In this document: one piece after another, positions 4,316 through 50,061 of the stretch
How positions within the stretch are numbered: position 1 is the stretch's first letter
Layout: each line of letters opens with the position of its first letter
DNA from: Escherichia coli
GTDB lineage: Bacteria; Pseudomonadota; Gammaproteobacteria; Enterobacterales; Enterobacteriaceae
DNA: 64,000 nt
Assembly (NCBI RefSeq): GCF_003334815.1
Contig: NZ_QOWO01000013.1
Reading direction: 5' to 3' (one strand)
Translations under genes and position numbers: made by a program
The notes under the pieces: model-generated
The model's input: the letters and a program-made list of their open reading frames with translations, nothing else
The model's database searches: none
Told to the model about the DNA's origin: nothing

Positions 4316-4488
4316 TATCACGGATGCTTTTATAAAAATAATTAGAATAAGTCACTACGCATTCCCATAAATGCGGGAGAGGAATCTATCACATTGATGA
4401 ATGTTAGCCAGATATACGCCAGGAATGGGGAATTGTTTAGCGGCAGAATATGTAAACAAAAGCGGCAATAAATGTTGCCGGGAGAGAT

Positions 4489-4528
4489 GGTAGGGCGGAT
4501 AAGATGCGTCAGCATCGCATCCGACACC
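4489..4528. repeat. REP-like palindromic unit
   Basis: ggtagggcggataagatgcgtcagcatcgcatccgacacc resembles the E. coli REP consensus. Confidence 0.4.
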
Positions 4529-4540
4529 AACCCGCACGCT

Positions 4541-4572
4541 AAATATAAAAGGGGAGCGGTTTCCCGCTCCCC
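4541..4572 (-). terminator. Rho-independent terminator of tisAB
   Basis: ggggagcgg/ccgctcccc stem followed on the minus strand by a U-run, just 3' of the tisB stop. Confidence 0.6.
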
Positions 4573-4594
4573 TTTGGTGCGACTTGAATCTGAA

Positions 4595-4684
4595 TTACTT
4601 CAGGTATTTCAGAACAGCATCAAGCAGTTGCAGTGCTGCAACAATGAGTTTGAGGATAAGAATGGCGATATCCACCAGGTTCAT
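4595..4684 (-). CDS. tisB: Type I toxin TisB, 29 aa
   Basis: Hand translation of the minus strand gives MNLVDIAILILKLIVAALQLLDAVLKYLK followed by TAA; too short for the ORF track. Confidence 0.9.
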   Translation of the reverse strand: MNLVDIAILILKLIVAALQLLDAVLKYLK

Positions 4685-4785
4685 ACGCGTCTCCTGTGGT
4701 TCAGGAGCACTGCCAGCTGACGTACCTTTCCGCTGCCTGTTGCCAGCTGTTGTGCACGCGGTATCTCAAGGAGAAACGTTGTGCT

Positions 4786-4807
4786 TGTTGACATAACACA
4801 GTGTGCT
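4786..4807. promoter_or_regulatory. Probable IstR-1 pairing site in the tisAB 5' leader
   Basis: tgttgacataaCacagtgtgct is a 21/22 direct repeat of 5044..5065; about 100 nt upstream of the tisB start. Confidence 0.55.
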
Positions 4808-4918
4808 CACGCGGGGTTAAGGCGCTGACGGCACCACCCGTTTCAGCCAGGACTTAGTGCGCCGGGTAACGATGCGGCCCCCGCATAACACATTGCGTAC
4901 AGTGATATTATAGAAGTT

Positions 4919-4938
4919 TACTGTATAAATAAACAGTA
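4919..4938. promoter_or_regulatory. LexA box between divergent tisAB and istR
   Basis: taCTGTataaataaACAGta fits the CTGT-N8-ACAG SOS-box consensus. Confidence 0.8.
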
Positions 4939-4984
4939 ATATTTGGACAAAACGCAAACTGTGATCGATACTCAACTATGCACT

Positions 4985-5128
4985 AAATACGTCAAAATTC
5001 GTGCCGAAATTGCGCGTTCTGCGCGGAACACGTATACTTTCAGTGTTGACATAATACAGTGTGCTTTGCGGTTACCAGCCGCAGGCGACTGACGAAACCT
5101 CGCTCCGGCGGGGTTTTTTGTTATCTGC
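4985..5128 (+). ncRNA. istR: Antisense sRNA IstR (IstR-2 / IstR-1); 5' end approximate
   Basis: Plus-strand terminator at about 5098..5122; contains the 22-nt repeat complementary to the tisAB leader; position divergent from tisB. Confidence 0.55.
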
Positions 5129-5248
5129 AATTCAGTACAAAACGTGATCAACCCCTCAATTTTCCCTTGCTGAAAAATTTTCCATTGTCTCCCCTGTAAA
5201 GCTGTGCTTGTATAAATATTGTTAAACACAAAACCAACAAGGTCCCCA

Positions 5249-5347
5249 ATGACTACTTCCATGCTCAACGCAAAACTACTACCAACTGCGCCATCCGCCG
5301 CAGTGGTCGTCGTGCGTGTGGTGGTGGTCGTCGGCAATGCGCCGTAG
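5249..5347 (+). CDS. ivbL: ilvB operon leader peptide, 32 aa
   Basis: Hand translation gives MTTSMLNAKLLPTAPSAAVVVVRVVVVVGNAP followed by a stop; Val/Leu-rich control codons. Confidence 0.9.
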   Translation: MTTSMLNAKLLPTAPSAAVVVVRVVVVVGNAP

Positions 5348-5370: not shown

Positions 5371-5406
5371 AAAACCCCGCCGGCGCAAACCGGGCGGGGT
5401 TTTTCG
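5371..5406 (+). terminator. ilvB attenuator (rho-independent terminator)
   Basis: ccccgccgg...ccgggcgggg stem followed by tttttcgttt, between ivbL and ilvB. Confidence 0.8.
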
Positions 5407-21920: not shown

Positions 21921-22015
21921 TGGCGGAAGATCACAGGAGTCGAACCTGCCCGGGACCGCTGGCGGCCCCAACTGGATTTGAAGTCCAGCCGCCTCACCGG
22001 AGACGACGATCTTCC
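21921..22015 (-). tRNA. selC: tRNA-Sec (selenocysteine, anticodon UCA)
   Basis: Reverse complement reads GGAAGATCGTCGTCTCCGGTGAGGCGGCTGGACTTCAAATCCAGTTGGGGCCGCCAGCGGTCCCGGGCAGGTTCGACTCCTGTGATCTTCCGCCA. Confidence 0.95.
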
Positions 22016-46994: not shown

Positions 46995-47015
46995 TTCTCG
47001 CTTTGATGTAACAAA

Positions 47016-47049
47016 AAACCTCGCTCCGGCGGGGTTTTTTGTTATCTGC
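47016..47049 (+). terminator. rpmBG terminator
   Basis: ccucgc-uccg-gcgggg stem with one G-U pair, followed by a 6-U run; 34-nt identical to 5095..5128. Confidence 0.7.
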
Positions 47050-47091: not shown

Positions 47092-47901
47092 ATGCCTGAA
47101 TTACCCGAAGTTGAAACCAGCCGCCGCGGCATAGAACCGCATCTCGTTGGTGCAACCATTCTTCATGCAGTGGTGCGCAACGGACGCTTGCGCTGGCCGG
47201 TTTCAGAAGAGATCTACCGTTTAAGCGACCAACCAGTGCTTAGCGTGCAGCGGCGGGCTAAATATCTGCTGCTGGAGCTGCCTGAGGGCTGGATTATCAT
47301 TCATTTAGGGATGTCTGGCAGCCTGCGCATCCTTCCAGAAGAACTTCCCCCTGAAAAGCATGACCATGTGGATTTGGTGATGAGCAACGGCAAAGTGCTG
47401 CGCTACACCGATCCGCGCCGCTTTGGTGCCTGGCTGTGGACCAAAGAGCTGGAAGGGCATAATGTGCTGACCCATCTTGGACCGGAGCCGCTTAGCGACG
47501 ATTTCAATGGTGAGTATCTGCATCAGAAGTGCGCGAAGAAAAAAACGGCGATTAAACCGTGGCTGATGGATAACAAGCTGGTGGTAGGGGTAGGGAATAT
47601 CTATGCCAGCGAATCACTGTTTGCGGCGGGGATCCATCCGGATCGGCTGGCGTCATCACTGTCGCTGGCAGAGTGTGAATTGTTAGCTCGGGTGATTAAA
47701 GCGGTGTTGCTGCGTTCGATTGAGCAGGGTGGTACAACGCTGAAAGATTTTCTGCAAAGTGATGGTAAACCGGGCTATTTCGCTCAGGAATTGCAGGTTT
47801 ACGGGCGAAAAGGTGAGCCGTGTCGGGTGTGCGGTACGCCGATTGTGGCGACTAAACATGCGCAGCGGGCAACGTTTTATTGTCGGCAGTGCCAGAAGTA
47901 A
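47092..47901 (+). CDS. mutM: Formamidopyrimidine-DNA glycosylase
   Basis: 269 aa; N-terminal PELPEVE; C-terminal zinc finger CxxC...CxxC. Confidence 0.95.
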
Positions 47902-50022: not shown

Positions 50023-50061
50023 CAGTATTCAGGTAGCTGTTGAGCCTGGGGCGGTAGCGTG
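50023..50061 (+). promoter_or_regulatory. JUMPStart element containing the ops site (RfaH loading)
   Basis: Exact GGCGGTAGCGTG at 50050..50061 in the waaQ leader. Confidence 0.8.

Follow-up and report, generated by a model that had tools for sequence, protein, structure and literature searches.

In the 64,000-nucleotide stretch of Escherichia coli DNA analyzed here (the window), a 34-nt non-coding sequence, AAACCTCGCTCCGGCGGGGTTTTTTGTTATCTGC, occurs exactly at 5095–5128 and again at 47016–47049, both times on the plus strand and about 42 kb apart. How did two distant sites come to carry the same 34 nucleotides? A sequence-only reading of the window, whose account of the exact repeat our search reproduced, had offered recent copying or shared selection, for example on a common factor-binding site. 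The window holds no third match to the 34-mer at three or fewer mismatches, and 100 shuffles gave 0 matches. The identity ends sharply, since the next base differs between the copies at either end (5′, g/a; 3′, a/t).

Fold, genomic setting and RNA 3′ ends of the two copies

Each copy folds, as the earlier reading had described, into a 6-bp stem (CCUCGC/GCGGGG) with one U-G pair and a UCCG loop, followed by U6GUU; the core hairpin has a ΔG of −10.0 kcal/mol. Folded with its context, the first copy reaches −18.4 kcal/mol (z −3.7) and the second −24.6 kcal/mol (z −7.5), and both were recovered by a terminator scan, copy 1 at 5094–5117. Copy 1 is made up of an A-tract (5095–5097), the stem-loop (5098–5113) and U6GUU (5114–5122), while in copy 2 the stem-loop spans 47019–47034 and U6GUU 47035–47043. 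On the sense strand, a G+C-rich hairpin thus runs directly into a U-rich tract at the end of a transcription unit in both cases. Compared with canonical C(UNCG)G intrinsic terminators, the two share the G+C stem, the YNCG loop, the U-rich tract of 8–9 nt, the A-tract and an RNA 3′ end 8 nt past the stem, and we see no essential difference, except that two loci 42 kb apart use the same version down to the tail.

Copy 1 closes a full-length, plus-strand Rfam match to istR (RF01400, 4990–5119; 150.1 bits against a gathering threshold of 45), covering the IstR-2 region with IstR-1 inside it; istR is the sRNA antitoxin to the tisB toxin. The tisB gene lies at 4595–4684 on the minus strand, as transferred by offset from the annotation of strain 300709, which is 100% identical to the window over 1.3 kb. 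From the same annotation and from the sequence, ivbL, encoding the leader peptide of ilvBN, lies at 5249–5347 on the plus strand, with ilvB downstream of it in the same direction as copy 1; the ilvBN leader and promoter lie about 130 nt downstream of copy 1, which shields this co-directional unit. Copy 2 starts 22 nt past the stop codon of rpmG (ribosomal protein L33; 46827–46994, plus strand), identified from its ORF, its translation and the RefSeq annotation of an identical region, and is followed after 43 nt by mutM (fpg; 47092–47901, plus strand; ORF and annotation), the co-directional gene that it shields as the terminator of rpmB-rpmG. Rfam returned nothing at copy 2, which is therefore not a member of istR: copy 1 is the IstR-1/IstR-2 terminator itself, while copy 2 belongs to no istR-like RNA and has only the 34 nt in common with it.

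Several other features surround the copies. A LexA box is found at 4919–4938, upstream of copy 1, and a 21-nt direct repeat with one mismatch (4787–4807 and 5045–5065) corresponds to the IstR-1 5′ end and, on the other strand, its tisA/tisB mRNA target, which is known biology. The attenuator terminator of ivbL (5371–5400; CCCCGCCGGCGCAAACCGGGCGGGGTTTTT) has a 13-nt word in common with the reverse strand of the module, and the portion of the Term-seq table used here places an RNA 3′ end for it at MG1655 3852831(−) (PMC7815308). In the same window, Rfam finds tRNA-Sec (selC) at 21925–22015 on the minus strand and a JUMPstart element (waa operon leader) at 50023–50061 on the plus strand.

The sequence-only reading had proposed Term-seq as a way of confirming the 3′ ends, and published MG1655 data match both copies. 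In the portion of the Term-seq table used here, the primary 3′ end of istR-1/istR-2 is MG1655 3853116(−) and that of rpmG is 3811202(−), the latter with 940,057 reads in LB at OD 0.4, among the higher counts in that portion (Adams et al. 2021, eLife, PMC7815308, supplementary file 1). The table gives 61-nt contexts in which the 3′ end is base 51, as checked on the SgrS entry, and the two loci are in the same register. According to these entries, the istR and rpmG RNAs both end in GGGGUUUUUUGU, at window positions 5121 and 47042, 8 nt past the stem and within the U-tract in vivo. Because the mapped ends precede them, the last 7 identical bases (TATCTGC) are DNA, not RNA. That the module sits at the 3′ ends of plus-strand transcripts is thus upheld by the end of the Rfam istR match, by the position behind rpmG and by Term-seq ends that fall, in these entries, at the same place in both copies.

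The further claim that the module should terminate in this orientation only holds in part. An orientation bias is present: the other strand has a C-A mismatch in place of the U-G wobble, and its core hairpin reaches −4.3 kcal/mol, against −10.0 for the plus strand. Exclusivity is doubtful for the rpmG copy, which sits inside a longer 17-bp palindrome (47008–47045; GTAACAAAAAACCTCGC / GCGGGGTTTTTTGTTAT) where the A-tract and the U-tract lengthen the pairing; its minimum free energy is −24.6 kcal/mol on the plus strand and −17.5 on the minus strand (z −7.5 and −6.2), and the reverse-strand hairpin is followed by U6. The istR copy has no such palindrome, and its reverse strand gives no convincing fold (−9.5 kcal/mol, z −0.9), with only three T's after the hairpin. 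The rpmG copy, a near-perfect 38-nt palindrome folding on both strands, accordingly has the A-tract, hairpin and U-tract of bidirectional terminators, a class to which A-tracts have been linked (PMC12207403). Unlike such terminators, neither copy is faced by a convergent gene in the annotation, the wobble weakens the reverse hairpin, and the istR copy lacks the reverse U-run.

Both 34-mers are, then, ordinary intrinsic terminators, and both elements are already known, the IstR terminator from Rfam and Term-seq and the rpmG terminator from Term-seq. The IstR-1/IstR-2 terminator reportedly goes back to Vogel et al. in 2004. Gifford and Wallace are said to have placed an attenuator between rpmG and fpg (mutM), in the radC-rpmB-rpmG-fpg operon, in 1999; copy 2 occupies the same position, and the Term-seq entry there is a very strong 3′ end. 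To our knowledge, that work makes no mention of identity with the istR terminator, and in the literature we found no paper connecting the istR and rpmG terminators and none with the hairpin sequence.

Copy number and variation within E. coli

BLAST of the 34-mer found the module in 5,426 of 5,426 complete E. coli genomes, with a median of 2 and a maximum of 3 places per genome at E ≤ 1e-3 (5,425–5,426 genomes), none of them on plasmids in this set. At E ≤ 10, the median rises to 5, the extra places being partial matches of 18–20 nt. The genome-wide search that the sequence-only reading had suggested therefore brought no more full copies. That reading had named membership in a genome-wide family with many near-identical copies as the outcome that would speak against it, and the answer is divided: within E. 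coli there are two copies per genome, while across bacteria, as described below, the 22-nt core is a common type of terminator.

An exact repeat in non-coding DNA, with a true REP-like element nearby (about 4495–4530, within the tisB-istR cassette), might suggest a dispersed repeat or a member of a mobile family such as REP/BIME, ERIC or MITE. We give this explanation almost no weight. The module resembles REP/BIME families in being a short palindromic repeat in intergenic DNA, but those occur in tens to hundreds of copies at variable intergenic sites, whereas the module has two full copies per E. coli genome, carries neither a REP consensus nor flanking repeats, and is fixed at the same two orthologous loci across genera. 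The other places in the genome are partial matches, for example at the metY terminator. The latter, the one partial place inspected, lies in the metY-rimP spacer after tRNA-fMet (metY) (1488–1520 of the E. coli locus L001) and was considered as a third copy and rejected: it has the 3′ arm and tail in common with the module (19 nt, CGGGGTTTTTTGTTATCTG), but its 5′ arm and loop differ. Conservation of this tail extends to Salmonella and, almost fully, to Serratia, which marks it as an old terminator in its own right.

The two copies are polymorphic within the species. The rpmG copy has a CCCG loop in 1309 genomes, the istR copy has the tail GTTACCTGC in 1856, and a third istR tail allele, ATTGCCTGC, is rare. 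As the loop of one copy and the tail of the other vary separately, the two copies drift independently within E. coli. Combining the identity classes of the BLAST places, we estimate that the copies are identical over 34 nt in about 2,400 genomes (45%), one difference apart in about 1,570 (29%) and two apart in about 280 (5%), so that they stand 1–2 SNPs apart in about 34% of genomes. By this estimate, exact 34/34 identity is a property of the strain type, found in about 45% of complete E. coli genomes.

The istR copy is absent from the remaining 20% or so (about 1,080 genomes), because the whole tisB-istR cassette has been replaced there by about 165 unrelated bases. The replacement lies between ysdE and ivbL and removes the REP-like element, tisB, the LexA box, istR and the terminator. 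It was seen by alignment in strain TUM13773 and a second time in locus L151; these delimit the cassette in the window to about 4482–5174, including copy 1 and 46 nt beyond it. A locus of a divergent Escherichia, reached via the IlvB protein P0025, likewise has no tisB-istR. In the separate species Escherichia sp. SCPM-O-B-8794, the rpmG loop is TACG and the istR tail is GTTACCTGC, which suggests that the T completing the identity in K-12-type strains is probably derived.

Conservation in related genera and recurrence across bacteria

We compared the two loci across genera, as the sequence-only reading had recommended, and the outcome speaks against the recent copying that it had proposed. The rpmG terminators, reached via RpmG or MutM proteins or by pattern scan, have the stem CCTCGC/GCGGGG in Salmonella, Citrobacter, Pluralibacter, Pseudocitrobacter, Phytobacter, Cedecea, Pantoea, Erwinia and Izhakiella. 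At istR, the same stem, mostly with a TCCG loop, was found at 14 loci confirmed by Rfam from about 10 genera (Escherichia, Salmonella, Citrobacter, Klebsiella, Enterobacter, Leclercia, Kosakonia, Siccibacter, Phytobacter and Pluralibacter). With the stem shared by istR in some ten genera and by rpmG in Enterobacteriaceae and Erwiniaceae, the likeness is old rather than recent, all the more as the copies drift separately in E. coli. The stem itself is what is conserved, maintained by compensatory change, because its wobble has been exchanged for a Watson-Crick pair in two places: the Salmonella istR arm is GCGAGG, giving U-A, and the rpmG stem of locus L144 is CCCCGC/GCGGGG, giving C-G. Locus L147 has a wholly different yet complementary stem. 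One Enterobacter-type rpmG locus has another hairpin.

The bases past the U-tract are less constant. The tail GTTAYCTGC is found at both loci in Escherichia only; elsewhere the tails read GTTTTCTG followed by G, C or A, or diverge after GTTTT, other genera having GTTTTC or GTTTTT at the start. In Salmonella, both loci combine a TTCG loop with GTTTTCYGGC, and there are 3 differences in 34. Based on the stems, loops and tails across genera, the two terminators were probably already alike at about 32–33 of 34 positions in early Enterobacteriaceae.

How special is the hairpin? We scanned one genome per bacterial species with the pattern CCTCGCNNCGGCGGGGTTTTTT (20 specified bases, corresponding to CCUCGC-YNCG-GCGGGG plus U6), and at least 120 stretches matched, against about 0.5 expected by chance (2 × 2.98e11 / 4^20). 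Among the 120 matches listed with full flanks, where many species are represented by one of their two loci, 13 lie behind rpmG and 13 behind istR. A further 11 of those listed stand directly upstream of a P2-like prophage tape-measure gene, 9 at the ends of tRNA operons (Vibrio, Kangiella, Xanthomonas, Stenotrophomonas and Aeromonas, confirmed by ARAGORN) and 6 at a gene for a small membrane protein (Enterobacter, Lelliottia and Kosakonia); the rest of those listed comprise many single loci in Gamma- and Alphaproteobacteria, Bacteroidota and others. Among the matches listed, the choice of the two free loop bases is far from even (UU 49, UC 31, CU 14, UA 10) and places the loops among UNCG-type tetraloops, which are extra stable, and the 8 bases past the T6 run follow a consensus, K-T-T-(G/T)-Y-C-T-G, in many taxa (L015–L134). 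Because the loop bases are biased and the tail consensus recurs at other terminators, the state space of loop plus tail is small.

Examples of this tail (window positions 5120–5128 and 47041–47049) from unrelated terminators are ATTGCCTG, TATGCCTG and GTTATCTG, and related tails occur at the E. coli rpsT, manZ, tdh and metY terminators. In the portion of the Term-seq table used here, TTTATCTG has 16 occurrences, the most of six 8-mers of the same composition (2–11 for the others; PMC7815308). At the prophage loci L029, L039, L056, L075, L077, L088, L116 and L119, the hairpin and T6 are followed by ATTGCCCGGAG, immediately 5′ of the tail tape-measure gene; this hairpin next to the tape-measure gene is found in P2-like and Klebsiella prophages, and 79 phage records match it. 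Proteus penneri offers a second example of identical terminator modules in one genome, two unrelated loci (L090 and L091) being identical over 30 nt (CCTCGCTTCGGCGGGGTTTTTTGTTATCTA). Rare loops are common to the two loci of a pair in Rosenbergiella (L029/L030) and in Enterobacter sp. R1 (L039/L040).

This recurrence bears on the other suggestion of the sequence-only reading, shared selection for a trans-acting factor (Hfq, ProQ or another) recognizing this sequence on both RNAs. Hfq generically binds 3′ modules that combine a terminator hairpin with a U-tail; the shape of the present module, a hairpin ending in UUUUUUGU-3′, would be compatible with it, and the Rfam label of istR, as a label, is Hfq-binding RNA. 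Yet in distant taxa the same core closes phage genes and, in Vibrio, Kangiella and Xanthomonas, tRNA operons; loop and tail change freely from genus to genus and inside E. coli; and the last 7 of the 34 shared bases come after the RNA 3′ ends mapped in the Term-seq entries used here. A common factor-binding site is thus unnecessary as an explanation, nothing points to a dedicated binding factor, and we consider this explanation highly improbable.

Origin of the identity and its meaning

We think it probable that the two 34-mers are separate, long-established Rho-independent terminators built on one very common design: A-tract, 6-bp G+C stem, YNCG loop and U6GUU. By the standard mechanism, RNA polymerase would pause in the U-tract, and the hairpin would form and strip the weak rU:dA hybrid, with release of the RNA 8 nt past the stem, a position shown by the Term-seq 3′ ends used here. 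Each terminator would end a unit with strong transcription (on one side IstR-1, a constitutive sRNA, on the other the ribosomal protein operon rpmBG) and stand directly ahead of a gene that runs in the same direction but has to be controlled separately (ivbL-ilvBN and mutM, respectively). Because a strong unit lies upstream and a separately regulated gene downstream, the constraint common to both sites may be selection for a very efficient terminator, which would explain why the design was retained at both. As the comparison across genera shows, both loci have retained the hairpin from a time before the enterobacterial genera diverged, with drift confined to the first two loop bases and the tail. 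In part of the E. coli population, this drift could have run into exact identity, or a short gene-conversion event could have nudged it there. As the hairpin is of a type met very often in bacteria and goes back a long way at both sites, there is nothing unusual in an exact match in this E. coli strain.

The first likeness of the two terminators may go back either to an ancient duplication or to convergence on the common design. In the former case, tisB-istR, on arising in the Enterobacteriaceae ancestor, would have taken the older rpmG terminator, about 40 nt including A-tract and tail, with purifying selection acting since. Among the matches listed, the hairpin behind rpmG extends to Erwiniaceae (Erwinia, Pantoea and Izhakiella), and istR was seen in Enterobacteriaceae only; several genera have flanks of the TGAYAAAAA type, as well as GTTTTCTG, in common at both loci; and the inferred ancestral versions would be only 1–2 of 34 positions apart. 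On the other hand, convergence is clearly possible, given over 100 unrelated loci to which the 22-nt core has spread or at which it arose. The left flank pairs with the U6G tract and is constrained by this, and no likeness extends outside the module. We therefore hold an ancient duplication to be possible, with the balance leaning against it.

More recent events deserve a closer look. Given the same core, position frequencies among the matches listed put the chance of also sharing the loop and the 9-nt tail at about 3.5e-5, so that constraint or history is needed for the tail. The Escherichia-only GTTAYCTGC and the Salmonella TTCG with GTTTTCYGGC, each at both loci, look like local homogenization, beyond what conservation alone would give. 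Both would follow if, independently in Salmonella and in the lineage of Escherichia, one locus had recently been copied onto the other or had converted it over a short tract (ectopic gene conversion), and the C-to-T change in the istR tail of K-12-type strains makes that tail equal to the one at rpmG. At 34 bp, the module also exceeds the length of roughly 23–27 bp that, according to what Shen and Huang reportedly found in 1986, RecA-dependent exchange in E. coli needs.

The distances between loci do not bear out such a process as a rule. The mean within a species is 4.25 differences in 34, against 4.98 across species (permutation p = 0.13, in a small sample of 8 taxa with both loci and with the Klebsiella pair left out; p 0.14–0.20 at genus level), so within-species distances are not significantly smaller, and general concerted evolution finds no support in this sample. 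Escherichia and Salmonella fit a conversion-like pattern, whereas the pairs in Citrobacter, Phytobacter and Enterobacter, 6–9 of 34 positions apart, do not. Unequal exchange between the two direct repeats would leave a chimeric junction that runs from the rpmG side through the module to the istR side, and none of the 5,426 E. coli genomes has one. Every parallel change is a single base. Where a genome has several of the matches listed, the same loop is found in 6 of 18 pairs (0.26 expected). Together with the independent SNPs at the E. coli loci and the third or so of genomes with non-identical copies, these observations make recent copying or conversion an unlikely source of the exact identity. 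Occasional short gene conversion in Escherichia or Salmonella is possible, and the tail constraint (consensus NTTRYCTG) is observed.

For the bases past the U-tract themselves (GTTATCTG; N-T-T-R-Y-C-T-G), we put forward, as a long shot, that they form a DNA element of very strong terminators or are kept alike by occasional short ectopic conversion. If this were so, the last 7–9 identical bases would reflect a constraint at the DNA level, or exchange between unlinked terminators, and not history alone.

Returning to the reading we prefer, two old terminators on one common design, the identity is explained by a recurrent design conserved over a long time, together with a small number of changes at single bases. 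Its biological weight is small, both terminators being textbook elements. One practical consequence concerns K-12-type strains, in which about 27 nt of the IstR and rpmBG 3′ ends are identical, so that short RNA-seq, CLIP and RIL-seq reads from them are not uniquely assignable. The module may also be of use as a candidate design part, a compact natural terminator kept behind highly expressed ribosomal protein, tRNA and sRNA units. More generally, two non-coding sites can match exactly over about 30 nt without recent copying if the design space of the element is small.
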